From NCBI RefSeq assembly GCF_004010195.1, contig NC_057757.1, forward strand, positions 4,312,314-4,376,313: DNA of 64,000 bases. Reading direction: 5' to 3'. The translations under genes were made by a program, and so were the position numbers. Positions within the stretch are counted from its first letter, which is position 1. Every line of letters begins with the position of its first letter. Source of the stretch: Chiloscyllium plagiosum. Taxonomy: Eukaryota. Positions 911-50,016 of this stretch are shown piece after piece. The notes beneath the pieces were generated by a model. That model had not been told where the DNA came from. It worked only from the letters and a program-made list of their open reading frames with translations, and searched no databases.

Positions 911-1011
911 ATTGGAATACTATTCCAATATTGAAAAGCCAAGGCATTTTCAACTGAAATAAGGAGAAATTGCTTCACTCAGTGTAGGGGTGAAAGTTTG
1001 GAACTCTTTCT

Positions 1012-1569: not shown

Positions 1570-1605
1570 GGAAAGGTTATGGCGGAAAAGGTTATGATGG
1601 CAAAG
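1570..1605 (+). CDS. Microexon, 36 nt, (G)KGYGGKGYDGK
   Basis: ttgttccacag|GGAAAGGTTATGGCGGAAAAGGTTATGATGGCAAAG|gtattg. Confidence 0.8.
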
Positions 1606-4600
1606 GTATTGTCTTTAATTTTAGAAATCAATTTCTCCAAAGGAACTAGGACAGAAAGTGTGACCTAAAACGGTTTTGATGACAGACAGAAACAAACTCC
1701 TTTCTGTTAACAATACCCTGAATATTAGCATCTATCGTTTTGTTGCAAAGTATTAATGAGGTGAATTTTTTGATTCGTACCATATTTGGATTTGGAACAA
1801 ATACAGTTAATTGTCAGAAGACATAGAGAAAACTGGCAGTGTGAATTGTTTGATAGTCATTAGAAAGTTTGTGCGAAGATTTGTAGCTCGGGTGCTCGTT
1901 GATGTGGTTCTGTTCGCCGAGCTGGAAGTTTTTGTTGCAAACGTTTCGTCCCCTGGCTAGGTGACATCATCAGTGCTTGGGAGCCTCCTATGAAGCGCTT
2001 CTTTGATGTTTCCTCCGGTGTTTATAGTGGTCTGTCCCTGCCGCTTCCGGTTGTCAGTTTCAGCTGTCCGCTGTAGTGGTTGGTATATTGGGTCCAGGTC
2101 GATGTGTTTGTTGATGGAGTTTGTGGATGAATGCCATGCCTCTAGGAGACACGCAGACAACAAGCAACATGAATTCGACTGGGACAACACAACTATCATA
2201 GGGCAAGCCAGACAGAGAACAGCCAGGGACAACAGTGGGGCCTGGTTACGGTCCAGGTAATGTCTTTAATTCCAATCATCTGTTGATCTAGAAGTCATAG
2301 GAATAAATGAAAAAGCTAACCAATAAATGATAATGTTGAGTTTTTAGCCGGGAACCAGATTCAAACAAATCCCTGTTAAATTATCCTGAATATATTGTTG
2401 ATGTCTGTCGATAGTGACAGTAATGTGTCAAGTCCCCATCAGGACTGGTCAATATCCAGTGACAATGTGAGCACACTCTCCCAACATTGAAAACCTTCAG
2501 GCATTTTGAACTGAGGTGAGGAGAAACTTCATCACTTGAGTTGAGCGGGGGGTGGGGTGTGAATCTTTGGAATTCTCTCCCCCAGAGGCTGGTGGAAGAT
2601 CAGATTTTCAATTTCTCCTTATTTAAACTATAATGGCACGGGGTGGGAACATAGCATTAAGACAGATGATCAGGTCACACACTAAATGGCAGAATAGAAT
2701 CAAACAGCTAAATAGCTTTCTCCTGTTCCCATGAATGTATGATTATTTTAATTTTGCAAAGAGAAACACAGGCACCCTGACTGAGACATTCTGAATGAAT
2801 CAAATGTTAACTGATTGAGCTGAAGATGTGCATGTGTGATTGAATACTTGCAAAATCCATTCATTGACATAATGTGTTTGCTCCACAGTGAAAATTTTTG
2901 TCGGAAAAGGTATTGTCTTTAATTTTTGAAATCAGTTCCTCCAAACAAATGAGGGCAGAGTGAGAGAGCGAGAGAGAGTGAGCAATAAACAGTTTTGATG
3001 ACAGACAGAATCAAACCCTGCTCTTATAACAGTAGCCGATACATTAGCATCAATTGTTATATTGCAAAGTATTAATTGGGTGTTTTTTTTTATTCTAGCC
3101 ATATTTGGCCAAGGTGCAAGTACTAATTATTATCAGAACATGAAGGAAAATATGTAATATGAATAGACGAACCTCCATAAGAAGGTTTGAAGAGATTAAT
3201 AAAGTCAACAAGAATTTGAAAATACATGAACATTTTTAAATTGTAACTATAATCATTAAGCTATTTAATTCTTAATGAACACTAACGATTCAAGGGGAAG
3301 AGCTGAAAATACAATTTTACAATTCTCTCCAAACTGCTTTAGCAGATATGTTTTGCTTTTCTTCAAAAGTGGGATCTCTTTATGGTCCAGAATTACAGTC
3401 TTTAATCCCATAGATCTGTTGATCTAAAATCAATAGGAACGAAAGAAATAGTCCAATCCATAAATGATAATGTTGAGATTTTAACCATGAACTAGATTCA
3501 AACAAATCCCTGTTAAATTGTCCCAAATACATTGGTGCCAGAACACACTGATGGTAATGTGTCAACTCTCCATCAGGACTAGTCAAAATCCAGGGACAAT
3601 ATGAGCACGCTGTCCCAACATTGAAAAGCCAAAGCATTTGTAACTGAAATAGGGAGAAATCTTTTCACTTGGCCTGAGGGTGAAAGTTTGAAATTCTCTC
3701 CCCCAGAGGCAGGTGGAAGATCCGTCATTGAGTAAATTCAAGGCAGGAAATGAGAGATTTCCAATTCCTCCTCATATCAAGGCACATTGGTGTGGTGTAG
3801 CAACATGGCATTGAGATAGATGATTAGCCATGCACTAAAATGACAGAATATGGTTAAAAGGCTGAGTAGCCTTCTCCTGTTCCCATGTATCTATCATTCA
3901 TTTAATTTTGCGAAGAGAAACACAGACCCTCCAGAGTAGGTAATTCTGAATGAACCAAATGTTAAACCGATTGAGCTGAAAATGTAAGTGTTCATTGCAG
4001 ACGTTGTTCATTGACGCAATGTGTTTATTCCACAGGGAAAGGTTATGATGACAAAGGTATTGTCTTTAATTTGAGAAATCAATTTCCCCAAAAGAACTAG
4101 GATAGAGAGTGTGACCTAACACAGATTTGATGACAGACAGACACAAACTCCTTTCTGTTAACAATACCCTGAATATTAGCATCTATTGTTTTGTTGCAAA
4201 GCATTAATGAGGTGAATTATTTGATTCGAACCATATTTGGACTTGGAACAAATATAGTTAATTTTCAGAAGATATCGAGAAAATTGGCAATGTGAATTGT
4301 TTGATAGTCATTAGAAAGTTAGAAGAGATGAGTAAATTGCAATTAAAATTAATAAGTTTTCAAAAGTACATTACAATCTTCAAATATTAACCATTATCAA
4401 CAATCTGTTTAGCTCTGAATAAACCTCAACATTTCAGCAGAAAATACTGAAAATATTATTTTCCAATTAATGCTCTCCAATGTTCAGTAACAGATCTGTT
4501 TTGTTTTTCTCCAACAGTGGGGCCTGGTTACGGTCCAGGTAATGTCTTTAATTCCAATGATCTATTGATCTAAAAGAGATAGGAATAAAGAAAAAAGCTA

Positions 4601-7600
4601 ATCAATAAGTGATTAATAAATAATCAATAAATGACAAACAAAATGGCAGAATAGGATCAAAAGGCTGAGTAGCCTTCTCCTGTTCCCATGTATCTATCAT
4701 TCATTTAATTTTGCGAAGAGAAACACAGACCCCCAGACTGGGTGATTCTGAATGAACCAAGTGTTAAACCAATTGAGCTGAAAATGTAAATGTGCGATTA
4801 ACTCTTTGCAGACAACGTTCATTGACACAATGTGTTTGTTCCACACGGAAAGGTTATGGCAGGAAAGGTATTGTCTTTAATTTTAGAAATAATTTTCTCC
4901 AAACGAACGAGGGCAGAGAGAGTGATCTAAAACAGTTTTGATGACAGACAGACACAAACCCCTTTCCGATAACAATACATTAAAATATTAGCATTTATTG
5001 TTTTGTTGCAAAGTCTTAATTGGGTGAAATTTCTGATTCTAACCACATTTGGCCCTGAACCAAATATATTTCCCTATGAGAAGATACAGAGAAAATTGAC
5101 AATGCGAATCATTTCATAGCCATTGGACAATTAGATGAGATGACTAAATTGCAATTAAAATCAATAAGATTTGGAAAGTACATTAGAATTTTCAAATATT
5201 CACCCTTAACGATAATCTGCATAGCTCTGAATGAACCTCCACTATTCAGTGAAAAGATAACTTTCCAAGGAATTCTCGACAATGTTCAGTAACAGATCTG
5301 TTTTGTTTTTCTCCAACAGTGGGACATGGTTACGGTCCAGGTAATGTCTCTATCCCAATTATCTATTGAACTAAAAGTATTAGGGAGAAAGAAAAAAGCT
5401 AATTAATAAATGATAATGTTGGTTTTTTAGCCATTGACTAGATTCAAATAAATCCCAGTCAAATTGTCCAAAAATAAGTTGTTGCTGTCTGATGACACTG
5501 ATAGTAATGTGTCAAGTCTCCATCAGGAGTGGTCAATACCCACAGACAATATGAGCACAGTGTTGCCATATTGAAAAGTCAAGACATTTTGAACTGAAAT
5601 ATGGAGCAATTGCTTCACCCAGTGTGGGGGTGAAAGTTTGGAATGCTCTCCCCCAGAGGCTGGTGGAAAATCAGTCATTGGGTAAATTCAAGACAGAAAC
5701 TGACAGATTTTCAATTTCTCATATCAACTGATATGGGCACAGTGTGGGAACATGGCATTGAGATTGATGATCAGCCGCACACTAAAATGGCAGAATATCT
5801 TCAAACAGCAAAAGAGCCTTCTCCTGTTTCCATATATGTTTTATTCTTTTAATTCTGCAAAGAGAAACACAGCCACCCTGAGTGGGTAATTCTGAATGAA
5901 CCAAATGTTAACTGATTGAGCTGAAGATGTGTTTGTCTGATTGAATATTTGCAAACCCGTGCATTGACACAATGTCTTTGAAGCACAGTGAAAGTTTATA
6001 ACGGAAAAGGTATTCTCCTTCATTTTGGAAATCAGTTTCTCCAAACGAATGATGGTAGAGAGGGAGATCAATAAACAGTTTTGATGACAGACAGACTCAA
6101 ACTCTACTCCTATAACAGTAACATGCATCAATTATTTTGTTGAAAATGATCATTTGGATGATTTTTTTATTCTAAACATATTTGGTCATGGTCCAAATAC
6201 TTATTATTATCAGAACAGAAAGGGAAAATATGTAATATAAATAGGTTAACATCTATTAGAAGATTTGAAAAGATGAATGAAATCAATACATTAACATGTA
6301 TCATAGTTGTAATCGATAAGCTATTTATCTTTGAATGAACCCCAACAATTCAAGGGAAAGGACTGATAATATAATTTTGCAGTTATTTCTCTACAAAGTT
6401 CTGTAACAGATGAGTTTTGCTTTTCTTCAAAGATGGGAGCTCTTTATGTTCCAGGCAATATCTCTAATTCCACAGATTTGTTGATCTAAAATTGATAGGA
6501 AAAAAGAAATCGTCCGTTCCATAAATGATAATATTGAGTTTTTAGCCATGAACTCGATTCAAACATATCCCCGTTAAATTGCCCAAAATACATTGTTGGC
6601 GTCCAAACGTACTGATGGTAATGTTGCAAATCTCCATCAGGATTAGTCAAAATTCAGGGACAATCTGATCACACTATTCCAAAATTGAAAAACTAAGGCA
6701 TTTTGAACTGAAATAAGAAGAAATTTCTTCACTCAGCCTGGGGGTGAAGGTTTGAAATTCTGTCCCCCAGAGATTGGTGGAAGATCAGTCCTTAAGTAAA
6801 TTCAAGACAGAAATTGTCAGATTTTATATTTCTCCTCATATCAAGGCACAATGGCGAGGTGTGGCAACATGACATTGAGATAGATGACTAGCCAGGCATT
6901 AAAATGACAGAATAGGATCAAAGGGCTGAGTAGCTTTCTCCTGTTCCCATGTATCTATCATTCATTTAATTTTGCGAAGGGAAACACAGACCCCCAGACT
7001 GGGTAATTCTGAATGAACCAAATGTTAAACCGATTGAGCAGAAAATGTAAATATGTTATTGACTCTCTGCAAACGTCGTTCATTGACACAATGTGTTTGT
7101 TCCACAGGGAAAGGTTACGATGACAAAGGTATTGTCTTTAATTTTCGAAATCAATTTCTCCAAATGAACTGGGTCAGAGAATGACCGAAAACGGTTTTGA
7201 TGACAAACTCCTTTCTGATGACAACACCCTGAATATTAGCATTTATTGTTTTGTTGCAAACTGTTAATTGGGTAAATACTTTGATTCAAACAATATTTGG
7301 ACTTGTACCAAATACTTTAATTGATGAGAAGTTATCGAGAAATTTGGCAATGTGAATTTTTTCATAGTCATTAGAAAGTTAGAAGGGATGAATAAATTGC
7401 AATTAAAATCAGTATGATTCCGAAAGTACATTAACATTTTCAAATATGACTTTCCAATGAATTCTCTACAACGTTCAGTAACAGATCTGTTTTGTTTTTC
7501 TCCAACAGTGGGACCTGGTTATGGCCCAGGTAATGTCTTCAATTCCAATGATCTATTGATCAAAAGGTGATATAAATAAAGAAAAATGCTAATCAATAAA

Positions 7601-10600
7601 TGATAATGTTGAGTTTTTTAGCCATGAACTAGATTCAAATAAATCCCTGCTAAATTGTCCTCACCATGTTGTTGGTGTCTGATGATAGTGATAATAATGG
7701 GTCAAGTCTCCATCAGGACTGCTCAATATCCAGAGACAATGTGAGCGCGCTGTTCCAATATTGAAAAGTCTTCAGGCATTTTGAACTGAGATGAGGAGGA
7801 ATTACTTCTCTGCAGATCTATGGGGAGGGGTGTGAATCTTTGGAATTATCTCCCCCAGAGGCAATGGAAGATCAGTCATTGAGTAAATTCAAGACAGAAA
7901 CTGACAGGTGTTCAATTTCTCCTCATATCAACTGATATGGTGTGGGAACATGGCATTGAGATTGATGATCAGCCGCACACTAAAATGGCAGAATAGAATC
8001 AAACAGCTAAAGAGCCTTCCCCTGTTCCCATGTGTGTAGTATTATTTTAGTGCTTCAAAGAGAAATACAGGCACACATACTGAGAATTTCTGAATGAACC
8101 AAATGTTAACTGATTGAACTGAAGATGTACATGCATGATTGAGTATTTGCAAAAACTGTTCATTGGCACAATGTGTTTGTTCCACAGTGAAAGGTTTTGA
8201 TGGAAAAGGTATTGTCTTTAATTTTTCAAATTGGTTCCTCCAAATGAATGATGGCAGAGAGAGAGAGAGAGAGTGAGCAATAAACAGAGTCAAACCCTGC
8301 TCTTATAACAGTAGCCGATACTTTAGCATCAATTGTTTTGTTGCAAAGTATTAATTGGGTGGTTTATTTGTTCTAAGCATATTTGGAGAAAGTGAGGATG
8401 GCAGATGATGGAGATCTGCGTTCGAGTAAAGCTCCCTCTACACTATCCCCATCAAACACTCCCAGGAGAGGGACAGCACAGGGTTAAATACAGCGTAAAG
8501 CCTCCTCTACACTGTCCCCCATCAAACACTCCCAGGAGAGGGACAGCATGTCGCTAAATACAGGGTAAAGCTCCCTCTACACTATCCCCATCAAACACTC
8601 CCAGGAGAGGGACAGCATGTCGTTAGATACAGTGTAAAGCCTCCTCTACACTGTCCCCCATCAAACATTCACTGGACAGGGACTGCACGGGATTAGATAC
8701 AGAGTAAAGATCCTTCTGCACTATCCCCATCAAACACTCCCAGGACAAGGACAGCACGGGTTTAAATACTGAGTAAATGTCCCTCTACACTGTTCCCCAT
8801 CAAATACTCCCAAGACAGGGATAGGACAAGGTTAGATACAGAGTAAAGCTCCCTCTAAACTTTCTCCCATCAAACACCAGGAGAAAGTGAGGACTGCAGA
8901 TGCTGGAGATCAGAGCTGAAAATGTGTTGCTGGAAAAGTGCAGCAGGTCAGGCAGCATCCAATGAGCAGGAGAATCGACGTTTCGGGCATGAGCCCTTCT
9001 TCGGGAATGGAGAAGGGCTCATGCCCGAAACGTCGATTCTCCAGCTCCTTGGATGCTGCCTGACCTGCTGCGCTTTTCCAGCAACACATTTTTGGCTCTA
9101 AACATATTTGGCCGTGGTCCAAGTATTAATTATTATCAGAACATAAAGATAGAATATGTAATATGAATAAATTGACGCCCATGAGAAGGTTTGAAGAGAT
9201 GAATAAAGTCAATAAGAATTTGAAAATACATGAACATTTTTAAATTGTAACTATGATCATTAAGCTATTTAGTTCTTAATGAACATAACTATTCAAGGGA
9301 AAGGACTGAAAATATAACTTTACAATTATTTCTCTCCAAAAAGTTCTGTAACAGATGTGTTCTACTTTTCTTCAAAAGTGGGACCTCTTTACAGTCCAGG
9401 CAAAGTCTTTAATCGCATAGATCTGTTGATCTAAAATCGATAGGAACAAAGAAATAGTCCAATCCGTAAATGATAATGTTGAAGTTTTAACCATGAACTG
9501 GATTCAAACTAATCCCTGTTAAATTGTCCCAAATACACTATTGGTGTCCGAACATACTGATGGTAATGTGTCAACTCTCCATCAGGACTAGTCAATATCC
9601 AGGGACAATATGATCACACAATTCCAAAATTGAAAAGCCAAAGCATTTTGAACTGAAATAAGGAGAAATTTCTTCACTCAGTGTAAGGGCAATACTTTGA
9701 AATTCTCTCCCCTAGAGGCTGGTGGAAGATCTGAGTAAATTTAAGACAGAAACTGACAGACTTCCAATTTCTCCTCATGTCAAGGGACATTGGCATAGTG
9801 TGGCAACAGGCATTGAGATAGATGACTAGCCATGCACTAAAATGGCAGAATAGGGTCAAAAGGCTGAGGAGCCTTCTCCTGTTCCCATGTATCTATCATT
9901 CATTTAATTTTGTGAAGAGCAACACAGACTCCCAGAGTGGGTAATNNNNNNNNNNNNNNNNNNNNNNNNNNNNNNNNNNNNNNNNNNNNNNNNNNNNNNN
10001 NNNNNNNNNNNNNNNNNNNNNNNNNNNNNNNNNNNNNNNNNNNNNNNNNNNNNNNNNNNNNNNNNNNNNNNNNNNNNNNNNNNNNNNNNNNNNNNNNNNN
10101 NNNNNNNNNNNNNNNNNNNNNNNNNNNNNNNNNNNNNNNNNNNNNNNNNNNNNNNNNNNNNNNNNNNNNNNNNNNNNNNNNNNNNNNNNNNNNNNNNNNN
10201 NNNNNNNNNNNNNNNNNNNNNNNNNNNNNNNNNNNNNNNNNNNNNNNNNNNNNNNNNNNNNNNNNNNNNNNNNNNNNNNNNNNNNNNNNNNNNNNNNNNN
10301 NNNNNNNNNNNNNNNNNNNNNNNNNNNNNNNNNNNNNNNNNNNNNNNNNNNNNNNNNNNNNNNNNNNNNNNNNNNNNNNNNNNNNNNNNNNNNNNNNNNN
10401 NNNNNNNNNNNNNNNNNNNNNNNNNNNNNNNNNNNNNNNNNNNNNACATTTTGTCAAGGGTGTATTGTCTTGTACTCATCAGGACAATTTACAAGAAAAG
10501 CAATTTAAGGGAAAGGAAATTTCTATATTGTATTAGAGGAGTGTTGTGATTAGTTTGTAAGTGTCATGCAATGGGACAGATGTTGCCATGATGAATGCAC

Positions 10601-13600: not shown

Positions 13601-16600
13601 ACGAACTGAGGAATATATCATTTTGAAAAGACGTACTGAAAATTGAATTTAGGCAACTGTGTATTATCGAGATTCAGATGCAATGAGTCATTCCAAATCC
13701 TTCGAAGTAAGTTGCTGGAGAATTCAATGTCTATCCCCAATGTGGGTACATCCTTCTGCTAATCAAATGCTTTTTACTCTATGCAAGCCTGACCTGCCTT
13801 GAGATGTGATGATTGACCAGACCATGACACTAATACGTCCAATTTCAAAGATTCCTTTTGATTAGTATTCTGGGCCCAATTAATGTGGGGCTATCGCAGA
13901 CTTTGCACAGCAGAGAGATTTAATGGCTGTGTCTTAACAAACAGATTCTGTCCTCGAATGGTCTTTTCAAACATTGCGTCAAAATGTAGAAGTTGTTTAG
14001 CACGCTTGCCATCATTGCTCAGACCTTTGAGTATAGGAGTTGAGACGTCATGTTGAGGTTGTACACGATGTTGGTGAGGCCTCTTCTGGAGCACTGTGTC
14101 CAGTTCTGGTCACCCTGTTATAGGAAGGATATCATTAAGCTGGAGAGGAATCAGAAGATTTACCAGGATGTCACCGGGAATGGAGGATTTCACTTATGAG
14201 GAGAGGCTGGATAGGCTGGGACTTTTTTCAGAGGTGTGCCGGAGATTGAGGAATGACCTTATAGAGATTTATAGAATCATGAGGGATGTAGATAAGGTAA
14301 TTGGCAGGTGTCTTGGGTGGGGGGGCTTGAAGACAAAGGGGGCACATTTTTAAGGCGAGAGGAGAAAGATTTAAAGACATGAGGGGCAAATATTTTACAC
14401 AGAGAGTGGTTCGTGTGTGGAATGAACTTCCAGAGGAAGTGGTGGATATGGGGACAGTTACAATGTTTAAAAGACATTTGGATAAGTACATGAATAGGAA
14501 AGGTTTGGAGGGATATGGGCCAGGAGCAGGCAGGTGGGGACTAGTTTAATTTGGGATTATGGATGGCATGGACTGTTTGTACCAAAGGGTCTGTTTCTGT
14601 GCCATCTGACTCTATGATACAAGGTTCAATAACATGAATGCAAAGGAGACAATACCTTGATCATTTTTTCAAATCACTATAATTTTTCATTTAGTAACAG
14701 AGATACAAGGAGGTTAGATATCCATTCGTGAAGGGGAAATAGATGATTAAACTCCAAAAGATAGAAGGTAGGAGCAGGCATAAACCATTCAGCCCTTCGA
14801 ACCTGCTCTGCCACTTAATACTATCACCTGCTGATCATCCAACACAGTCCCCTGTTTCGGCTTTCTCTCCCATACCCCTTAATATCCTTCGTTTCAAGTA
14901 ACTCCTTCTTGAAGACATTCAATGTTTTGGCCTGAATTGCTTTCTGTGACAGAGAATCCCAGAGGCTCCCCACTCTCTGGGTGAAGACATTTCTCCTTAT
15001 CTCAGTCATACCCTGGCTACTTCAGACTGAGACCCCCTCCCCCCCATCTCGGGTCTGGACCCATCTGGTCATTGGGAATATCCTTCCTGCATTCACACCT
15101 GCCTCGTCCTGTTAGAATTTTGTGACGATGAATGAGTGTGCACTGGAAAGTTAATTTGACCAGATTATTACTCAATCACCATACGATAGGTTGAGATTCA
15201 CCTGAGAAAGGATGAAGAGATGAGTAAACTCGAATGAATGAATGCAAACTGCAGTGTTCATTTAACTTTGGAGAGAGAATACTGACTCTGCAGGCTGTGT
15301 AATTCTGAATGAACCAAAGGTTTAAACAGTCAAGCTGAAAATGTAAATACTCAATTGATCCTGTGCACATCGTTCACTAACAATTTGTCCATTCCACACG
15401 GAAAGGTTACGTTAGCAAAGGCATTATACCTAAAGTTTTAAAAATTGGTTCCTCGAGTGGAGTAAGGACAGAGAGAGAGAGTGTGAGCAATGACATGTGT
15501 TGGAGATAGACACAAGTCCAAGCCCCTTCATTGCAGTGTTACCCAGAACAAAAAATATATGTCTTTAATCTAATATGAGGTAGTGAGCCATGTCATATCT
15601 GAGACACATACATTCATAGAGTCATAAAGGTAAATGGAAACAGACCCTTTGGTCCAACCCATCCATGCCGACCAGATATCTTAACCTTATCTACTCCCAT
15701 TTGCCAGCATTTGCTCCATATGACCTCCCAGCTCCTATACTCAATGCACTGACCAATAAAGGCAAGCGAACCAAATTCCTTCTTCACTATCCTGTCTACC
15801 TCTGACTCCACCTTCAAGGAACTCTCAACCTGCATCCCAAAGTCTCTTTGTTCAGCAACACTCCCCAGGACCCGACTTTTAAGCGGATAAGTCCTGCCCT
15901 GACTTGTCTTAGCAAAATACAACATTTTGCATTTATTTAAATTAAACTCCATCTGCCACTCCTCGGCCTATCTGACTGTGTTTCGTTCCTCATGGATGCT
16001 GTCAGACCTGCTGAGTTTCCCCAGCAATTTCTGTCTTCATTCCAAATGTTAATCCGATTGAGCTGAAAATGTAAATGTGCGATTGACTCTCTGTAGACAC
16101 CGTTCATTAATACAATGTGTTTGTTCCACAGGGAAAGGTTAAGACTTCAAGGGTATTATCTTTAATTTTAGAAATCAGTTTTTCTGAAGGATCAGGGCAG
16201 AGAGAGTGAGCAATAAATGTGTTGGTGATAAACAGATACAAACTCCTTCACTGTAAAATTACCTTGGATGTTCTCATCTCTTCCTTTGTTATGAAGTAAT
16301 AATTGGATGAATTTTTTGTGTGAAAAATTCCTGCCCAATAAATGAAAAAAGCATATAGAGATGTACAGCACAGAAACAGACCCTTTGATCCAACTCATCC
16401 ATGCCGACTGGATATCCTAAATTAATCCAGTCTCAACTGCCAGCATTTGGCCCATATCCCTGTTCATATACACATCCAGATGCCATTTAAATGCAATAAT
16501 TGTACCAGCCTCCACCACTTCCTCTGGCAGCTCATTCCATATACACACCAACCTCTGCGGGAAACTGTTGCCCCGTAGGTCATTTTTAAATCTTTCCCCA

Positions 16601-19600
16601 TTCATCTTGAACCTATGCCCCTCTATGTTTAGACTCCCCCACCCCTGGGGAAAAGACTTTGGCTACTTACCCCACCCATGCCCCTTATAATTTTATAGAC
16701 CTCTATAAGGTCACCCTTCAGCCAGCGATGCGCCAGGGAAAATACCCCCAGCCTATTCAGCCTCTCCCTGTAGCTCAAATCCTCCAATCCTGGTAACATC
16801 CTTGTAAATATTTTCTGTACCCTTTCAAATTTAACAGCGTCTTCCTATAGCAGGGAGACCAGCATTGAATGCAGTATTCCAAAAGTGACCTAACCAATGT
16901 CCTGTACAGCTGCTACATGACCTCCCAACTCCTATACTCAGTGCACTGACTGATAAAAGCACGCCTTCTTCACTACCCTGTCTACCTGTTACTCCACCTT
17001 CAAGTAGCTATGAACCTGCACTCCAAAGTCTCTTTGTTCGGCAACACTCCCCAGGACCCTACTTTTAAGTGTATACATCCTGCCCTGATTTGCCTTTCTA
17101 AAAGGAAGCACCTCACATTTATTTAAATTAAACTCCCTCTGCCACTCCTTGACCCACCTGACTCTGTTTCATTCCTCATGGATGCTGTCAGACCTGCTGA
17201 ATTTCTCCAGCAATTTCTCTCTTCATTTCAAATGTTAATCCGATTTATCTGAAATTGTTAAACGTGCAATTGATTCTCTGTGGACACCGTTCATTAACAC
17301 AATGTGTTTGTTCCACAGGGAAAGGTTATGACAAAGGTACGGCCTTTAATTCGAAAAATTGTTTTTTTCCCAAAGGAGTCAGGGAAAGACAGTGAGCAAT
17401 AAAGGATGTTGGTGATAGACAGATACAAACCCCTTCACTTCAAAGTTATCCTGAATATTCCCATCTCCTCCTTTGTTACTCAGCATTCATTGCGTGAATT
17501 TTTTGTGTTAGAAGGTACTGGCCAATGAAAGATATGTGCATATATTGTAACATTTGATGATACATTTAGGGAATTTTGTATTGACTAGTCAGTCCTCTCA
17601 TATTGGGAAACAAGAAAACCAAATTTTGCATCATTGCCAGGAAATACTCGAGTCTTACCTATCGTTTGTTTGGCTCTGATGGCACTGGGAGTAGGAACAA
17701 TCAAAGTTTGATAATGGCAGAGGTAGAAAAAGCCAAGACAGACCACACTCCTCACCACTTAAGTAAGATCACAAATGTAAGAGTTGAATTAGGCCATTCG
17801 GCCCATCGAGCCTGCTCTGCCCTTTGATCATGGCTGATATGTTTCTCAACCCCATTCTCCTGCCTTCTCCCCATAACCCTCGATCCCCGTTCTGATAATC
17901 AGGAACCTATCTCTTTCTCTCTGTCTTAAAGACACTCAATGACTTGGCCTCCCCAGCCCTCTGCAGCAATGAGTTGCATCGGTTCACCACCCTCTGGCTG
18001 AAGAAATGCCTTCTCGTCTCAGTTCTGAAGGGTCTCCCCTTCACTCTGAGGCTGTTCCTTAGTCTTTCCTACTGGTGGAAACATCTTCTCCACATCCGCT
18101 CTGTGATATTAGATGATAGTGGTATTATCCCTGGACTCTTAATCCAGAGACCCAGATAATATTCTGGGAAACCCATGTTTGAAGCCTACCATAGTGGAAT
18201 TTGAATTCAATTTTTTTTAAAAGTCTGCAATTAAGTGTCTAATGATGATCGTGAATCCATTGCCAATTGAGGGGGTGGGGGGAAATGCCCATCTGGTTCA
18301 CTAATGTCCTTTAGGGAAGGAAAATGCCCTCCTTACCTGGTTTGGCCTACACATAACGCCAGACCCACAGCCATGTGGTTGACTCTTAACTGTTCTCTGG
18401 GCAATTAGGGATGGGCAATAAATGCTGGGCCTAGCCAGTGATGTCCACATCACATGAATGAATTTTTAAAAAGACTCTATTCAGGCCTCTGTAAGTTTTA
18501 ATGAGATTCCGTCAGTAATGATGGTGATGGGAAAATGGATGTGAACTATTTATAACTATTTATTCCATTGGCTGAGGTTTCCTAGTAGTTTGGAGATTGA
18601 ATGAGATGGCTGTATCCAATGAGCCATGTCAAATATTTAATATTACCAAATGCATAGCTCACTATCCACCTCCAAAGTTAAACATGTTATTCCTTGCAAT
18701 TACAGACTCTCTGAGCTACACACCTCTATCCTACTCTGAGATGTAATCACTAATCTGATCCATGATCAAAAAAACTTAATAATGAATAAACTTCTGCCCT
18801 CAAGTCATACAGAACCAATCCTTATCAAGACAGTGAAGAGATTAGTGGCTCCATTAAACATTGGACAATAGATTTGTGACATAGTTAAGCCATCTTCTGG
18901 CATATGGAAGTTTGTAAAATAAAGATATTGAGCCAAAATTATTATACAGTGGGTGAAATATTGCATTTGCAAAGGGTAAAATTCACATAGTTTGCAAAAA
19001 AAAGACAGTAAATGGGTTTACTACATATTATGCAGTAGCCAGTTACATTACATTACACCTGAGATACTGTTGTGAGACAATTAGGCTTAACATGAGAATC
19101 ATAGAGTCCCAACAGTGTGAAAGAATGAAATTCGGCCCATCAGGTTCACACTGACCCTCCAAAGAGCATCCTACCCAGACCCAAACCCCTACCCTAGCCC
19201 TGTAACCCTGCATTTCTCCTGGCACCTCTGTCTTCAAAACCTCACCTAGAAACAAAAAAGGGAAAATACACCTCACAAAGCTACAAGCCTCCAGAGTGTG
19301 TAATTCTGAATGAACTGAATGTTAAATTAATCGAGCTGAAAAGGTAAATGTTCAATTGACTCTGTGTAGGCGCTGTTCCTTAACACTAACCATTTGTTCC
19401 ACAGGCTATGACAGGCTAATTTTATAAATCAAAACCTCCAAAGGAATCAGGGCAGAGAGAGTGGTCAATAAAAAGTGGTGATGATAGACAGACAGACACA
19501 AACCCCTTCGTTTTAACCCTGACATTGCCTTCCATTCCTTTGTTGCAAAGTGTTAACTGGGTGAATTTCCCCATTCTAAAGTTTATGGGCTAAGGCATAA

Positions 19601-22600
19601 ATATGGTCATATATAATATAAAATTTGTAAATAAGTTCTTTTTAATCAGAAAATGTGGTGGGTAATAACTGTGACCCCTTGCAACTCTCCAAATTGGTAC
19701 CTGTCCTTCCAGCAGCAGCCACCCCGTCCTCTGTGGTGCTGTTGAGCACAGAACCCAGCTGGTCTCCCTCTGCCTTCCTCCCTCCCCCTCCCCCTCCCCC
19801 TCCCCCGCACCCTCCTGATGGGCAGGCAGCTCACCCTTGGCAGGTGGCTGACCCGTGGCATTGCTCCTGCCTGATGGGCTTTGTGGCCCAGAGACATTCC
19901 CCTCTAATCCCATACCCCTCAAAAATCGGGAGAGGCGACGGCCTGGAGGTGTTATGACTGGACTGTTCATCCAGAGACCCTGGTAACGTTGCGGGGACCC
20001 AGGATCGAATCCGACCATGGGATTAAAAATCTGGAATTAAGACTCTAACCATGATAGTTGTCCATTGCTGGAAAAACCCATCTAGCTCACTTAACCGCCT
20101 TCAGGGAAGGAAACTGCTGCCCTTACACAGTCTGGCCTACATGTGACCCCAGACCCACAGCCAACATGGCTGACACTTTACTACCGTCTGGGCAACTAGG
20201 GATAGGCAAAAAATGCTGGACCCAGCCACTGATGCCCTCACCTTGTGAATAAATGAACAAAAAATAATGAGGGGCAGGGCTTTCAGCTTGGGACCTCGGA
20301 GCTGCATTACACAGCAAGATCCCAACTCTTAATGTGCCTGTGAAAGAGCAATATGGACACAAAGTCCATCGAGTTCTGAGAGGGCCCACTGCTGAATCGA
20401 TTGCATTAAACTTTGTGGTTGGTGGCTCAGCGCCACCTCCAGCGCCATGGACACGGGTTTGATTCCACCGTCGGGTGATGGTCTGCGTGGAGTTTGCACA
20501 TTCTCCTCGTGTCTGTATGGGTTTCTTCTCACCGTTCAAACATGTGCAGGTTCGAGTGGATTGGCCATGCTATATTACCTCATAGTGCCCAGAGATGTGC
20601 AGGTTAGGGTGGATCGGCCATGCTAAATTGTCCCATAGTGCCATGGGGTGTGCAGGTTAGGGTGGATTGGCCATGCTAAATTTTCCGGTAGTGTCCAGGC
20701 ATGTACAGGTTAGGGTGGTTTGGCAATGGGAAATTACCCCATAGTGTCCAGGGATGTAAGGTTAGGGTGGATTGACCATGCTAAATTGCCCCGTAGTTTC
20801 CAGGGATCTACAGGTTAGGGTGGATTTGCCGTGCTAAATTTTCCCATAGTATCCAGGGATGTGTAAGTTAGGGTGTATTGGCTGTGCTAAATTGTCCCAT
20901 TGTATCCAGGGATGTGTAGGTTAGGGTGTATTGGCCGTGCTAAATTTCCCATTGTATCCAGGGATGTGTAGGTTAGGGTGTATTGGCCGTGCTAAATTGT
21001 CCCATTGTATCCAGGGATGTGTAGGTTAGGGTGTATTGGCTGTGCTAAATTGCTCCGTGGTGTCCAATGTTTTGCAGGCTTGGTGGGTTGGCCATGGGAA
21101 GTGCAGGCATAGGGTGGGGGTGGTGCGGGGCGGGTCTGGGCGGAATGGTCTACAGAGAGCCGGTGTGAACTGGAGTGGCCGAATGGCCGGGTTCCACATT
21201 ATAGGGATCCTATGACGGTATGTGAGTCCTCAATTCATTTTCCAAACTAACACAGTCTCTTTGTTGTTTATCCCCACAGGCTATGGCCCCAAAGGTATGG
21301 CATTTAATTTGACACCTTGATATCTCCGAAAGGAATAAGGACAGAGGGGCTGAAACAAAAATGCAAACGCAGACCCTTTCCCTACAAACACAGCCAACAC
21401 CCTCTCCCCTCCCCCTTCCCAGTGAGGAATGACCTTTTCTGAAATTGGGGACTGGGTGCCGTTTGTCATTGTTGCAGACATCAGGATTCAGCAGCTGCAG
21501 CATTGTATTGTTATTCAACTGTGTTGGAACTGTGGTAATTCAAATTGTGCCCTGCGATGTTCACTAACACAATCTATTTGTTTCACAGGCAAAGGATATA
21601 GAGGCACAGGTATGGTCTTTCATTCAATATACCCTTTGCCACAAAAGGTCAGTAAGTTTGCAGATGACGCCAAAATTGGCAGATTAGTGGACAGTGAAGA
21701 AGGTTACCTCAGAGTACAACAGGATCTTGATCAGATGGGCCAATGGGTTGAGGAGTTTAATTTAGATAAATATGAGGTGCTGCTTTTTGGAAAGGCAATC
21801 AGGGCAGGACTTATACACTTAATGGTAAGTTCCTGGGGAGCGTTGCTGAACAAAGAGACATTGGAGTGCAGGTTCATAGTTCCTCAAAAGTGGAATCGCA
21901 AGTAGAGAGGGTAGTGAAGAAGGTATTTGGTATGCTTTCCTTTATGGTCAGTGCATTGAGTATTGGGAGTTGCGGTTATACAGGACATTGGTTAGGCCAC
22001 TTTTGGAATATTTCATTGAATTCTGGTCTCCTTGCTACAGGAAAGGTATTGTTAAACTTGAAAGGGTGCAGAAAAGATTTACAAGAATGTTGCCAGGGTT
22101 GGATGGTCTGAGCTACAGGGAGAGGCTTAATAGGCTGGGGCTATTTTCCCTGGAGGGTCGGAGGCTGAGGGGTGATCTTCTAGAGGTTTATAAGATCATG
22201 CGGGGGCATGGACAGGGTGAATAGCCAAAGTCTTTTTCCCAGAGTAGGGGAGTCCAAAACTAGAGGACATAGGTTTAAGGTGAGAGTGGAAAGGTTTAAA
22301 AGGGACCTTTTTCAGGGTGGTGCACGTATGGAATGAGGAAGTGGTGGAGGCTGATACAATGTCAGCATTTAAAAGGCATTTGGAAGGATATATGAATAGG
22401 AAGGTATAATAATTAGAATTCCTACAGTGTGGAAACAGGCCCTTTGGCCCAATAAGTCCACACCACCCTTCCAAAGGGTAACCCATCTGATGCATTCCCC
22501 CTGAATTCACTTAACCTGCACATCTCTGAAAACTTTGGGCAATTTAGCATGGTCAATTCAACTAACCTGCACATCTTTGGACTGTGGGAGGAAACCAGAG

Positions 22601-25600: not shown

Positions 25601-28600
25601 ATCTCTCACTTTAAGATTCCAATAGCAGAGCCGTAAAATATTTGATGGGAATTACAGTGGGAAAGGATGTGAGGGAGCTGCATTTCCCTTCTGAAACTGA
25701 GTGCAGACAATTCATCGTATGGTACCACAGAACTTAAGACTTTGCTAAACAGGTTCACGCTTCTTATCTTGCACTCAGTTAATGATGTAAGAAGGGGACA
25801 TCATTCCATTCAATTGGAGAAAAGGTTGACCAATCATTGGGGTGGACATGCTGCAAGAGCAGTTGACTGTCAATCTTAATTCTTAGACAGGCAGGTTGAT
25901 TCTGATTCGTCCTTTGCTGTGTTACCATGGAGATGCGACAGAGGTTGGCTATCTCCATGAATCTTTTATTTAAAAAAAGGTGCAATGCATTTACCAGTTC
26001 ATTTTCCCTTCCTTTTTCAAGTCTGTTTCTTGCTTTCTAGTCCAGAATGGTTGTTATGGACCCAAGCAGACCCCTCCAATTATTTTAAGAAGCTAATGTG
26101 GACCCTAACACTTTCTTACTTTAAAGGTAAAATGGAAAGTGTTGTGTTCCAGATGCAATGCGCATGGTCAAATTACTCCACGTTAAACAAAACACAAATC
26201 TGTGTCTGAATTTGTCTTTTTGTCAAAGGGTGTGTTTATGGGATGTTATTATTTGAAACAGTCAATTAGTAATTGGTACTGCATCTATTATTCAGTTCCG
26301 TTTTTCAACAGAGTTAAATTATTCTGAATCCCTCTTTCTTTTGATTACATTTTACCTTGCCAACTTTAAGGGCATTTGAATGGTCATTGGATAGGCATAT
26401 GGATCAGAATGCAGTAGCATAGGTTAGATTGGTTGCACAGGTCGGTGCAACGTCGAGGGCCGAATGGCCTGTACTGTGCTGTAATGTTCTGTGTTTAAAT
26501 AAATTGTGTTTTGCGTAATGTCGAGTAGTTTGACCAGTCACATCATGTCTAGAACACAGCACTTAAAATAAGAAAAAGTTAGGCTCCGGGGTGGGGGTGG
26601 GGGTTGGGGAGGGTGTCTGCTCTGGTCCATAAATGAACTTTGCAATTCTATCCTGCCTTCAGACAGTAACAGTGAGGAGACCGCAATGCAATGTAATCCT
26701 TGAATAATGTTGGACCTGAGTCTGAGAGTTCCAATTGTTTTTTTTAACCGTCGATAGCCTAAATCACAGGCAAAGAGCATGACACACTTTCAAACATCAT
26801 GGCTGACGTTTCTCCCCCTTTTTTGGCCTCCGTTTGGGACTGAGGTTGTTGGGTGGCACTGACACTATATCCAATCCTCCGCAACCATCAAGAAAACTCA
26901 CTAGGTCACCCTCACAAGCTACAAGCGAAAGCAAGCGCCTCGTCCTATCAATTATCTACACACCAACTGCCCAGGAGATGAGGGTCACTCAGAGGCTATA
27001 ACGTTTGGATCCTAAATTCCATTAACCAAGACTTAGCCTGCCTACTGGGCAAAGCTACAAGGGAGTGGGCAATGTTGTGTCCTTCACTGGCTGTTGATCC
27101 GCCTCTTGTGGGCATTAGTTGTGGGGGAGTTGGCAAAGTCACCCATGGATGTTCTTGCCCAGCGGGGGTGAAATGAAGTTTCTTTCTTGAGCCCCCAAGC
27201 CCTCGCAGCTAGTCCCGTTGCCCACCCCTTGCCAGGGGAGTCGGGAGTGTGAGGAACCTTCAGCTTATAAAAATGTTTAACTTGCAAGAGAAGGAAGAAA
27301 GCTATGTTGCAGCGAAGTAACTGCTCAACAGAGTTAGAGATTCATTCAAATAGGAGGAGAGGCCAATAAATGAAACACTAAATGGCCTGCACCTGCCTCT
27401 ATGTTTTTATAAATGAATTAGAATAAATTAAAATATGGACAAATGGTCAAATATATTTTTATTTTGAAAGGGTAAAAGCAATCTTCAGTCTCTGCAATCT
27501 ATAGAACATAAAACAGTCCAGTTCAGGAACAGGCCCTTTAGCATCACCATGTTGTGCTGAGCATGACACCAAATTAAACTAATCCCTTCTGCCTGCCCTT
27601 AGTCCATTCCTCGCATATTCATGTGCTTATCTAAAAGCCCCTTAAATCCCCCCTACCGTATCTGCCTCCACCAGCAACCCTGGCATCGCGTTCTATACTC
27701 CTACTACTCTCTGTGTAAAAAAAACCCCACCTCTCACAACTCCTTTGAACTTTCCCCCTCTCAACTGAAATGCATGTCCCCTAGTTTTAGACATTTCAAC
27801 TCTGGGGAAAAAATTCTGACCGTCAACTCTATCTATGCATCTCATCATTTTATAGACTTCTAGCAGGTCTCCCCTCAGCCTCCGCCTCCCCAGAGAAATT
27901 TTTCTAGCCTCTCATAACCTCTAATTCAGGCTGCATCCTGGTAAACCTCTTCTGCACCCTCTCCAAAGCCTCCACATCCTTCCTGTAATGTGGTGACCAG
28001 AACTGAAGGCAATAGTTGAAGTGTGGCCTAACCAAAGTCTTATAAAGCTGCAACATAATATCCTGACTCTTGTACTCAATTCCTTGACCAATAAAGGCAA
28101 GCATGGCATATGCCTTCTTTACCACCCTATCTACTTGTGCGGCCACTCTCAGGAAGTTGTAAATGAATTAATTGTCATGATGATTGCTTTGCAATTGTAG
28201 TTTCTCAGCTCATTCTCCAATGATAAGGCTCACGAAAACTAATCTGTTTCTTCCACAGGATCGTATTATTTTGACAAAGGTATTGTCTTTAATTTTAGAG
28301 ATGGTTTTCCCCAGGGTGAACAGGGAGACTGTGACGTCTATTGATGGAAACAAATCTCAAATCTCTTCACCATGCCATAACCTGACACATTTACGTTTTT
28401 GTTGCTAATTACTGTTGGTATAAATTTATTTTTTTGAAATCAATGATTCATTGAAAACATTATTTTATTAATAGAAAACAGAGCAATTGAAAAAAAAACA
28501 ATTGCTTCCAATACAATCAAGCATGAGAGGGCAATAATGGGATGAATGGTGGTGTAGTTGTAAGGTCAAAGGCTGAATGATCCAGAGCATAAATATCTGT

Positions 28601-34254: not shown

Positions 34255-34270
34255 CTATTCCTGCATCATA
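33693..34270 (+). other. Candidate terminal (3'UTR) exon of gene A
   Basis: gctaac branch + atttctttcctgactttcag acceptor; repeat-free; AATAAA at 34249-34254. Confidence 0.5.
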
Positions 34271-37037: not shown

Positions 37038-37058
37038 CTCCATGTCCGTGACGATAAC
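37038..37058 (-). CDS. Microexon, 21 nt, GYRHGHG
   Basis: tctgtttgttccacag|GTTATCGTCACGGACATGGAG|gtaata. Confidence 0.8.
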
Positions 37059-40000
37059 CTGTGGAACAAACAGATTGGTGTTAATTCAAAACCTACATCG
37101 AGTCATACAGCACAGAACAGACCCTTCAGCCCAACCAGTCCATGCCGACCATAATTCCAAACTGAACCAGTCCCACCTGCCTGCTCCTGGCCCGTTTCTC
37201 TCCAAACCTTTCCTATTCATGGATTTATCTCAGTGTCATTTCAATGTTGCAACTGTTCCAGCATCCACCACTTCCTCAGGAAGTTCATTCCACACATGAT
37301 CCACCCTCTGTGCAAAAAAGGTTACCCCTCGTATCTTTGTGGAGAAAGTGAGGACTGCAGATACTGGAGATCAAAGCTGAAAATGTGTTGCTGGAAAGGC
37401 GCAGCAGGTCAGGCAGCATCCAGGGAACAGGAGAAGAAGGGCTTATGCCCAAAACGTTGATTCTCCTGTTCCCTGGATGCTGCCTGACCTGCTGCGCTTT
37501 TCCAGCAACACATTTTCAGCTCTACCCCTCGTATCTGCGTGTCTGCGTGGGTTTCCTCCGGGTGCTCCGGTTTCCTCCCACAGTCCAAAGATGTGCAGGT
37601 AAAGTGAATTGGCCATGCTAAATTGCCCATAGTGTTAGATAAGGGGTAAATGTAGGGGTATGGGTGGGTTGTGCTTTGGCGGGTCGGTGTGGACTTGTTG
37701 GGCCGAAGGGCCTGTTTCCACACTGTCATGTAATCTAATCTAAACCTCTGCAAGGGCACCTCTCAATCTCTTCTGCTCTAGTGAAGAAAGGCCCAGCCTA
37801 TCCAGCCTTTCACACGACAATTACTGTTCCATTGGGAATTTCACAGATCGTGGTTTGGGGATGTTCGCTTAAAAGGAAATGAACATCACAGTTCAAACTC
37901 AATTTATACATTTCTCCTTTGTTAATGAGATACTCAGCACGTGAGTGAAGTACCTATCAAAACTATATGCCTGTCTATCAGTTTATCTATCTATCTATCT
38001 ATTTAACTGTCTGCCTATCTATCTATCTGCCTGTCTACCTATATGTCCAACTATCTGTCTGTCGACATATGTATGTATGTACAGTTTTTCGGAAAATGAT
38101 TTATGCTTTCCTCTTCAGTCTGACTCCATTTCACCTTCATAATATCCCAATTGATCACATTTATCAACATTTTTATGAAGCACTGAAGAATGAAGAATGG
38201 ATGTTGAGATTGCCTCAGAAAAGATGTAATGCAGATGTTAAGTGACTGATTGTAAAACAGGAGCTTGGTCCGAGATGTCCTGAGATTTTATATCCACTTT
38301 AGGACAGCAAGTGGATAATTTTCAGTATGTTCTGGTTAATGCTCACGTCTCAGGGCAGTACAGAGCTGTGTAACAGAGAAATATTGCAAACACAGCCTGG
38401 TTAATGCTGACATCTCAGGGCAGGACAGAACTGAGTAACAGAGAAACATTACAAACCCAGCCTGGTTAATGCTCACATCTCAGGGCAGGACAGAGCTGCG
38501 TAGCAGAGGAAAATTACAAACACAGCCTGGTTAATGTTCACATCTCAGGGCAGGACAGAGCTGAGTAACAGAGAGACATTACAAATACAGCCTGGTTAAT
38601 GTTCACATCTCAGGGCAGGACAGAGCTGAGTAACAGAGAGACATTGCAAACACAGCCCGGTTAATGCTCACATCTCAGCGCAGGACAGAGCTGAGTAACA
38701 GAGAAACAGTACAAACACAGCTTGCTTAATGCTCACATCTTAGGGAAGGACAGGCTGGAGTAGCTCAGAACCTCCTTTGCTCGAGTTTAATAATCTGATT
38801 AATTTCCCCCTGGGTATGGACACGTACAGCAGGTCGCTTGAAATATCTTGCTTTAAGGAATACACCCACCCCACTCGATATTGGAACAATCTTGGATAAC
38901 AGTATTAATGACTCTCGCCCATATTGTCTGCTGTCTTTATTGTACATTGCACACAGCAAGAACTTCCTTTCTATGGGATTTCCGCAGTTACCATCAGAAT
39001 AATGTGCTCAGTGTCCCTGAAGTGTTTTAAGAGACACAGATCAGGAGGTCAGAGTCTGAGATCTCTCAGGAAGGAGCTGATATGGGGAGTTGATGCCATG
39101 ATTCCTATTGACAGCTGAATGTCTCAACCAGCAGCAACGTTTGGCACCAGGGCCATTGACTGCTTTAAGTTAGGAAAAGGCAGATTGGTGTCATATTATA
39201 GTCAATTCTCAGCCACTGGTACCAAGAACAGAACATTGATGCCCTGGGCACTGTATCTGGGGAGTTGTGTCACCATGGGGACAGTCAGGCTGCAGTATAT
39301 GGATATGTGTCTATCTCTCACCCACATGCTCAGTCTCTCTTATTGGTGATAGAGAATGAGAACTCTTAGATTAAAGATATTACCTCCATATCCGGGACCA
39401 TAACCTGTGGAATAAACAGATTGTTGTTAATTCAAAACCTGCATCGGGTCATACAGCACAGAACAGTCCTTTCAGCCCAACCAGTCCATGCCGACCATAA
39501 TTCCAAACTAAACCAGTCCCACCTGCCTGCTCCTGGCCCGTTTCTCTCCAAACCTTTCCTATTCATGGATTTATCTCAGTGTCATTTCAATGTTGCAACT
39601 GTTCCAGCATCCACCACTTCCTCAGGAAGTTCATTCCACACATGATCCACCCTCTGTGCAAAAAAGGTTACCCCTCGTATCTGTTTTAAAGCTCTTAAAG
39701 ATGTGCCGCCTAGTCTTGACATCCCCCATCCGATGGAAAATACACATATCACGAACTCTGTCTGTAGCCCTCACTCACTTTATAGACCTCTGCAAGGGCA
39801 CCTCTCAATCTCCTCTGCTCCAGTGGAGAAAGGCCCAGCCTATCCAGCCTTTCACACAACACTTACTGTTCCATTGGGAATTTCACAGATCGTGGTTTGG
39901 GGATGTTCGCTTAAAAGGAAATGAACATCACAGTTCAAACTCAATTTATACATTTCTCCTTTGTTAATGAGATAATCAGCATGTGAGTGAAATACCTATG

Positions 40001-43000: not shown

Positions 43001-44060
43001 CGACCTTTCTGTGGGATTTCCGCTGTCACCATCAGAATAATGTGCTCAGTGTCCCTGTTGTGTTTTCAGAGACACAGATCAGGAGGTTAGAGTCTGAGAT
43101 CTCTCAGGAAGGAGCTGATATGGGGAGTTGATGCCATGATCCCTATTGACAGCTGAATGTCTCAACCAGCAGCAACGTTTGCCCCCAGGCCCATTGACTG
43201 CTTTAGGTTAGGAAAAGGCAGATTGTTGTCAGATTATAGTCAATTCTCAGCCACTGGTACCAAGAACAGAACATTGATGCCCTGGGCACTGTATCTGGGG
43301 AGTTGTGTCGCCATGGGGACAGTCAGGGTGCAGGATATAGATATGTGTCTATCTCTCACCCACATGCTCAGTCTCTCTTATTGCTAATAGAGAATGAGAT
43401 CTCTTAGATTAAAGATATTACCTCCATGTTCGCCACGGTAACCTGTGGAACAAACAGATTGGTGTCAATTCAAAACCTGCATCGAGTCATACAGCACAGA
43501 ACAGACCCTTCGGCCCAACCAGTCCATGCCGACCATAATCCCAAACTAAACCAGTCCCACCTGCCTGCTCCTGGCCCGTTTCTCTCCAAACCTTTCCTAA
43601 TCATGGATTCATCTCAGTGTCATTTCAATGTTGCAACTGTTCCAGCATCCACCACTTCCTCAGGAAGTTCATTCCACACATGATCCACACTCTGTGCAAA
43701 AAAGGTTACCCCTCGTATCTGTTTTAAAGCTCTTAAAAATGTGCCGCCTTGTCTTGACACCCCCCATCCGAGGGAAAATACACAACTCTGTCTATAGCCC
43801 TCACTCACTTTATAGATCTCTGCAAGGGCACCTCTCAATCTCCTCTGCTCCAGTGAAGAAAGGCCCAGCCGATCCAGCCTTTCACACGACAATTACTGTT
43901 CCATTGGGAATTTCACAGATCATGGTTTGGGAATGTTCGCTTAAAAGGAAATGAACATCACAGTTGGAACTCAATTTATACACTTCTCCTTTGTTAATGA
44001 GATAATCAGCACGTCAGTGAAATACCTATCTAACTATATGCCTGTCTGTCGGTCTATCTC

Positions 44061-44148
<88 letters not shown>

Positions 44149-48147: not shown

Positions 48148-48203
<56 letters not shown>

Positions 48204-49962: not shown

Positions 49963-50016
<54 letters not shown>

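Follow-up and report, generated by a model that had tools for sequence, protein, structure and literature searches.

An array of duplicated microexon cassettes in a likely gene for a secreted Gly/Tyr-rich protein of the shark Chiloscyllium plagiosum

Relation to described matrix proteins

Tropoelastin, encoded by ELN, is the described system closest in architecture to the locus reported here, an array of very short exon-like cassettes on the plus strand of a 64,000-nt stretch of the Chiloscyllium plagiosum genome (the window; contig C48, 4312314-4376313). Fish tropoelastins, as described in part of PMC12733013, are marked by KA and KP domains, hydrophobicity, a basic C-terminus with a Cys pair and synteny with limk1 and septin4/5, and the gene is single in non-teleosts. 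The same excerpted text gives 70 exons for the devil ray eln, with repeated alternating exon pairs of 36 and 48 nt, and describes cartilaginous-fish tropoelastins as highly hydrophobic (48.7% on the paper's own scale). The shark array consists of duplicated intron-plus-cassette units in what is probably a gene for a secreted protein rich in Gly, Tyr, Lys and Pro, which would likely harden extracellularly through oxidation and cross-linking of its tyrosines. The architecture has a precedent in an exon-pair-expanded matrix protein, and the family is apparently undescribed.

Joining the 34 of 45 candidate exons on C48 that are canonical at both ends gives one frame of 251 residues with 0 stops. 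Its mature part (233 residues) contains 30.9% G, 14.2% Y, 13.7% K, 10.7% P, 9.0% V, 8.2% D and 0.9% A. The joined product has 42% Gly plus Pro, 14.6% AVLIFMW and a grand average of hydropathy (GRAVY) of -0.98, and it holds 23 GY, 11 KGY, 9 GPG, 0 KAAK-type, 0 KP and 1 PK motifs. Array blocks lying in assembly gaps would lengthen it.

As in ELN, the predicted gene has a signal exon, many small frame-preserving exons and repeated exon pairs, one member of each bearing Lys and the other Gly/Pro. The parallel with tropoelastin drawn in a preliminary description of this DNA thus holds for the architecture but not for identity with ELN. Unlike tropoelastin, the product lacks KA/KP domains and is hydrophilic, on a scale that differs from the paper's percentage; it is rich in Tyr, its exons are heptads, it belongs to a multigene family (at least 6 further copies of exon 1), and its array holds many dead cassettes. 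When the candidate last exon is read in phase 1, the Cys pair and the tetrabasic motif are absent, but this exon does not itself fix the C-terminus. Genome-wide searches with ELN C-terminal motifs gave 0 and 12 matches, of which the 12 equal the control level and none is ELN-like; the shark ELN was not located. None of 62 septin matches lies on C48, and no LIM, PDZ or kinase domain was found in 150 of 503 non-repeat open reading frames (ORFs) scanned from ~580 kb, a scan in which short exons could be missed. We therefore rejected ELN identity on composition, copy number and, as far as the septin matches and the ORF scan reach, synteny.

A convergent elastin-like elastomer with no orthology to ELN, in which VGPGYGP would supply entropic elasticity and lysyl oxidase would cross-link KGY, is unlikely. 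The phase-1 symmetrical small exons, their pair-wise duplication, the Gly plus Pro content, the 14% Lys and the GPG motifs would fit it, as would the alternating exons of the devil ray eln (PMC12733013, in part). The absence of KAAK and KP, the scarcity of Ala, the low AVLIFMW share and the GRAVY value, however, contrast with the hydrophobicity given in that text for cartilaginous-fish tropoelastins. In addition, Asp adjoins the lysines in the Lys cassettes, these cassettes are unconstrained (see below), and a minus-strand paralogue is almost without Lys or Pro.

SCPP genes, in the excerpts of PMC9122587, have phase-0 introns, lie beside sparc-L and encode acidic or P/Q-rich products with SxE sites and PDYXXPXX repeats. 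The shark gene resembles the elasmobranch and bony-fish members covered there in its signal peptide, small exons, Tyr-rich region and tandem duplication. Unlike them, its cassettes are in phase 1 after a 55-nt signal exon, are Lys-rich and carry neither SxE nor PDYXXPXX; on phase and motifs, as far as that partial source defines them, SCPP membership was rejected.

The egg capsule is described in PMC8894161 (in part) as collagenous and as a product of the oviducal baffle zone. The longest Gly-X-Y run in the shark product is 3 triplets, indicating that it is neither a collagen nor a collagenous capsule component. Skate capsules and elastoidin contain Gly/Tyr-rich tanned proteins. Predicted secretion, Gly and Tyr richness and several family sizes liken the shark product to these capsule proteins or to the Tyr-rich part of elastoidin, a likeness of expected composition only. 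Gly-Tyr repeats serve assembly or oxidative cross-linking in lamprin (GGLGY), insect chorion and cuticle GY proteins, flagelliform silk (GPGGY) and mussel byssus (Tyr/Lys). Here too the likeness is at the level of composition, and no homology is expected. The literature searched in full text held no description of the family, a novelty on which subscription papers on egg-case proteins may bear; the available parts of PMC9999432, PMC11979771, PMC8894161 and PMC11734691 hold nothing on a shark Gly/Tyr cassette family.

Array layout and duplication history

The array comprises 14 exon-like cassettes between 1570 and 9399 (+), one per ~0.5-kb unit (Table 1). In brief, all are in phase 1 and 21 nt long, with one of 36 nt; they are spaced 329-1191 nt apart, and an acceptor-like and a donor-like motif lie on either side of each. 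Whole units including introns are duplicated at 70-93% identity. The view that the cassettes are phase-1 microexons of a repeat-protein gene that grew by duplication of exon pairs is supported. Flank identity is ~88% between A units, 76-82% between A and C and 83-93% between D units.

The units read ABCdABaBCdABCd, where lower case marks loss of the acceptor AG or the donor GT. The four classes follow the A-B-C-D order of the preliminary description, but the periodicity is not plain ABCD: an extra A'/B' pair (4847/5320) gives a 10-unit block (4036-9379). The unplaced contig C96019 carries this block again with its order unchanged, and fragments of it occur on further unplaced contigs, with identities of 90-97%. 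AG or GT is lost in 4 of the 14 units, which would place B beside B and C beside A in a spliced product, and a strict Lys/Pro alternation is not supported. All three D copies lack GT, as had been noted (one reads AA, two GC). Overlooked at that stage were the tyrosines (14%, with 23 GY), the lost acceptors at 4847 and 6434 and the insertion at the 2236 acceptor.

A search of the assembly (3.56 Gb, 101,977 contigs) gave 47 matches to one A-B pair, upstream on C48 and on unplaced contigs. The unit catalogue covers C48 together with 11 of the 12 unplaced contigs matched and holds 97 units; 92 have a frame-keeping length (21 nt in 91, 36 nt in 1). The 5 frame-breaking units all lack a registered acceptor. 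Only 41 of 183 gaps in the flanks are multiples of three, compared with 92 of 97 cassettes of frame-keeping length. Both AG and GT are kept in 18/25 A, 28/32 B, 12/18 C and 0/17 D copies (58/92 overall); A and C were assigned by best hit, and among the upstream units some labelled C are of the GKG type. On unplaced contigs, 3 sister copies of the C cassette at 5989 have lost the acceptor by deletion.

In trees built from flanks only, which cover the 85 of 91 units with enough flank sequence, the VKG-type C copies form a single clade nested among the A-type units and all 15 D tips form another nested among the B-type units, which bears out the earlier view of C as a diverged A and D as a diverged B. 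Homology also links the A- and B-type units to each other (local score 53, reached by 0 of 300 shuffles). Based on these sequence relationships, we infer that one ancestral unit gave rise to a pair, from which A/C and B/D would derive, and that the pair expanded to ABCD and then to the 10-unit block. Around the last exon, ~4% of the letters (40/917, three contigs) differ between the window and sequencing run X6 (organism B). This is less than the A-C or B-D divergence, and the four classes are therefore likely older than the split between X6 and the window. Sharks mutate slowly, at 7e-10 per base per generation (PMC10587355, in part), so the classes are probably old.

Gene model and selection on the cassettes

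A TATA box lies at L003:1149 and an ATG at L003:1214, which opens MEYPCVLLLVSLMAVVMA followed by a phase-1 donor. This signal exon (L003:1214-1268, 55 nt) encodes an 18-residue hydrophobic signal, ends in phase 1 and lies ~29 kb upstream. It is followed by an 18-nt exon (L003:2188), a 24-nt exon (L003:4331) and the array, which starts at -23753 (negative coordinates are upstream of the window start). Degenerate cassettes are also present downstream of the array in the window. We suggest that the array and the parts on either side form one gene spanning three assembly gaps.

The candidate last exon is read as mostly 3' untranslated region (UTR), because its 66-aa ORF has no Pfam match, its frames are broken by indels among paralogues, and, among the 7 positions at which run X6 differs in it (6 of these differences are not shared with runs of organism A), third codon positions of the phase-1 frame are not overrepresented. 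A Gly/Pro-rich ORF at ~+112 kb was rejected as coding; it is a 24-nt minisatellite.

Protein searches with the signal exon gave 4 candidates, none with E<=10, and with the 1570 cassette and its flanks no candidate; both are weak blanks from short, low-complexity queries. No RNA run was among those listed for the 3' UTR query. Reads were aligned near the last exon only, not over the array, and no splice joint was listed. Single-cell RNA run X7 (~2 in 100 reads examined) has zero depth in bins 33450-34305 and was given no weight, and in X8 nothing aligned at the last-exon region. Run X2 shows a pile at 33785-34117 (depth 26) with empty intron bins, as would 3'-tag RNA. It was not counted as expression: in two runs from that study coverage is as even over intron as over exon, the pattern of low-depth DNA, in a third it is patchy, and X2 itself includes one intronic piece and one that crosses the acceptor unspliced.

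Purifying selection on the A and B cassettes had been proposed from their mostly silent differences. The quoted counts are correct (3 between 4518 and 7509, 1 between 4036 and 7108), and 2 of these 4 are TAC/TAT changes before G, i.e. CpG sites. Pairwise pN/pS values (A 0.38, B 0.51, C 1.37, D 1.97) are not independent of one another, and parsimony counts from the flank trees, compared with the flank rate on the same branches, were used instead. With all 85 tips, the B lineage has 25 replacement changes against 50.9 expected (P=4e-5) and 19 silent ones (8 CpG), with omega 0.59, the B flank rate in this set being inflated by insertions. The A lineage has 33.5 replacement changes against 39.7 expected (P=0.21) and 13.5 silent ones (6 CpG), with omega 0.62; omega is 0.96 for C and 2.21 for D. 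The synonymous excess reaches only P=0.06-0.07.

In a reduced set, 11 rows (6 A/C-type, 5 B-type) were dropped for disrupted flanks or very long branches. B still has 19 replacement changes against 33.2 expected (P=0.006) and 2 AG/GT changes against 9.6 (P=0.004), whereas D has 16 against 10.9 and 7 against 3.1, respectively. B cassettes are thus constrained, D cassettes are free, and the Lys (A/C) cassettes as a class are indistinguishable from their flanks. With all copies counted, the proposed purifying selection stands for B but not for A, nor for C, and the comparison with flanking introns suggested at the time gives significantly fewer replacements than the flanks for B only. The constraint on B supports a living gene. 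The flank-like rate of the Lys cassettes weakens the idea of an essential cross-link domain, although skipping a symmetrical exon costs little, so that weak selection per copy is expected either way; with the motif counts and Ala content given above, the proposal of elastin-type cross-link domains in the Lys exons finds no backing.

Several points weigh against a functional gene for a cross-linked protein. In the reduced set, silent changes in B are also below expectation (11 vs 15; omega 0.78), so that splice signals or gene conversion, rather than the protein, may account in part for the conservation of B. The A lineage there runs at the flank rate (24 replacement changes vs 25.3; AG/GT 6 vs 6.3), as does C for replacements (7 vs 7.0; AG/GT 0 vs 1.8). 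It should be noted that parsimony on flank trees is rough under concerted evolution and that some unplaced contigs may be alleles. The cassette at 16132 has intact ends and carries a stop, which could truncate the protein or be skipped, and the candidate last exon does not fix the C-terminus. No spliced read or transcript was found in the runs examined, so exon use and tissue stay predicted. The cross-linking chemistry and the tissue are suggested by composition and general literature only.

These observations bear on the view that the locus is a decaying gene or pseudogene, expanded like a satellite, in which most cassettes are no longer spliced in. Loss of AG or GT in 34/92 units, the flank-like A and C lineages, the stop at 16132 and repeats inserted near splice sites point that way. 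Yet B copies mostly keep AG/GT (28/32) with significantly fewer changes than their flanks, the signal exon, TATA box, last-exon acceptor and AATAAA are intact, and the 34 joined canonical exons are free of stops, so that we consider this view improbable.

Table 1. Cassettes and other features of the likely plus-strand gene in the window
Feature	Position	Strand	Remarks
A-type cassette	1570..1605	+	36 nt, in-frame internal 15-nt duplication, AG/GT intact; GKGYGGKGYDGK
Inserted repeat, approximate ends	1865..2229	.	Takes the place of the pyrimidine tract of B at 2236; unit alignments stop at 1869, resume at 2230
B cassette VGPGYGP	2236..2256	+	AG/GT present, acceptor tract disrupted
C cassette VKIFVGK	2889..2909	+	AG/GT intact
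D cassette	3370..3390	+	Donor lost (AA); likely dead exon
A cassette GKGYDDK	4036..4056	+	AG/GT intact; opens 10-unit block
B cassette VGPGYGP	4518..4538	+	AG/GT intact
A' cassette	4847..4867	+	Acceptor lost (CAC); likely dead exon
B' cassette VGHGYGP	5320..5340	+	AG/GT intact
C cassette VKVYNGK	5989..6009	+	AG/GT intact, acceptor weak
D cassette	6434..6454	+	Acceptor and donor both lost
A cassette GKGYDDK	7108..7128	+	AG/GT intact
B cassette VGPGYGP	7509..7529	+	AG/GT intact
C cassette VKGFDGK	8188..8208	+	AG/GT intact
Inserted 70-bp minisatellite (8424-8877) and piece like a short interspersed element	8388..9088	.	In C-D intron
D cassette	9379..9399	+	AAG acceptor, GC donor; likely skipped
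Assembly gap	9946..10445	.	Array probably continues inside; further blocks on unplaced contigs
A-type cassette	16132..16152	+	AG/GT present, in-frame TAA; dead exon or early stop
A-type 18-nt cassette GKGYDK	17319..17336	+	
15-nt cassette GYGPK	21280..21294	+	
21-nt cassette GKGYRGT	21589..21609	+	
21-nt cassette GSYYFDK	28259..28279	+	
Candidate last exon, mostly 3' UTR	33693..34270	+	Acceptor and AATAAA (34249) conserved in paralogues; end approximate

Gene family, neighbourhood and implications

Genome searches found 6 further matches to exon 1 with its promoter and 6 further places matching the last exon; most exon-1 copies read MKYLCLFLLVSLMAVVMA. A minus-strand paralogue (37038..63422, -) converges on the plus-strand gene. 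It has 8 GGY-type cassettes (52244-63422) and 6 of the GYxxxHG/GYG type (37038-47536), with a signal exon at L021:3215-3270 (-), ~3.2 kb past the window end, followed by a 15-nt exon 2. The window yielded no last exon for this paralogue and has a gap at 35217-35716; homologous 3' ends lie on C99114 and C100447. Further paralogue cassettes (GSGGYGT/GKGYGTT) occur at +93 to +112 kb, and a short member (C48:4575930-4586400; L041-L043) has few cassettes (VGQPYRK, VPPPYY, GSIPIY) between its signal exon and the shared last exon. A more remote relative lies at C48:8.00-8.05 Mb: its signal exon is similar, and cassettes of the types GKGGYGDY and GPYDHGHHH alternate in a homologous intron context, with alignment scores reached by 0 of 300 shuffles; 3'-UTR homology was not found in the 30+70 kb examined. 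All members seen are GY-rich, and their Lys, His and Pro content varies.

Two last-exon homologues on C48, at 4388100-4389200 (+) and 4435000-4436020 (-), have no matching signal exon nearby and may be local misassemblies or incomplete genes. The C99114-type paralogous 3' end (corresponding to window 34206-34277) has a depth of 28-37 in X1 and X3, two runs of one sample, compared with ~6 for the window's own, which suggests several more family copies than are assembled.

The neighbours of the cluster include C1r/C1s-like proteases (best PDB match C1s, E 3e-55; CUB), an NLRC4/NAIP-like gene and immunoglobulin (Ig) V-set exons. A C1s/C1r-like protease-domain exon (L004:3405-4193, +) reads TSATC where the catalytic His motif would be expected, and the protein may be inactive and C1r-like or haptoglobin-like; a second C1r-like gene lies ~27 kb further upstream. 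The NAIP/NLRC4-like gene (L032-L034, -; ~100-110 kb upstream) encodes BIR, NACHT and NLRC4 helical domains. An unrelated small secreted protein, presumably chemokine-like from its general resemblance, would start in L040, ~172 kb upstream (+), with a first exon like a signal peptide; an Ig V-set exon lies nearby in L039. Directly before the array, window 231-974 (-) holds a 248-aa stop-free frame that resembles an ORF1 fragment of a long interspersed element.

These neighbours, and the apparently labile family copy number judged from the 3'-end depth, would suit a secreted Gly/Tyr-rich family for host defence or mucus rather than a load-bearing material, and other animals have cationic secreted peptides, rich in Gly and Tyr, that act as antimicrobials. 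However, very long and regular arrays of heptads are typically found in structural proteins, the cassettes have no conspicuous sites for dibasic processing, and neighbourhood is not function; we regard a defence role as rather unlikely.

We return to the reading of the array as part of a gene for a secreted, Tyr-cross-linked structural protein. Cassettes of 3n length in phase 1 could be duplicated as units, or lost through a single splice-site mutation, with no shift of frame. In this way the D and A' lineages would have dropped out while B was kept and the Lys cassettes drifted, and the product would therefore be a disordered chain dominated by VGPGYGP with irregular KGY heptads. By analogy with tanned egg capsules, Tyr may be converted to 3,4-dihydroxyphenylalanine (DOPA)/quinone or dityrosine, with Lys, and His in the paralogues, as nucleophiles. 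Splicing, secretion, disorder, the Tyr-based cross-linking with Lys/His partners and the tissue are all predictions of this model, in which the egg capsule or fin-ray elastoidin would be the likeliest sites. More tentatively, and with some doubt, we speculate that the cluster is an undescribed elasmobranch family of Gly/Tyr-rich, non-collagenous egg-capsule tanning proteins (or the Tyr-rich part of elastoidin), in which splice-site mutations within higher-order tandem repeats would add or remove single heptad exons and so retune the cross-link chemistry (the Tyr:Lys:His:Pro ratio).

The array presents exon birth and death under way, with one class conserved, one dead (17/17), two drifting and the frame unchanged. 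Genes made almost wholly of 15-27-nt exons are missed by ORF-based annotation and collapsed in short-read assemblies, and a whole family of shark matrix proteins may therefore be missing from catalogues. Egg-capsule and fin-fibre materials are known mainly from amino-acid analyses. If the family does supply their Gly/Tyr-rich components, it would provide sequences for such materials and a natural series of Tyr/Lys/His designs.

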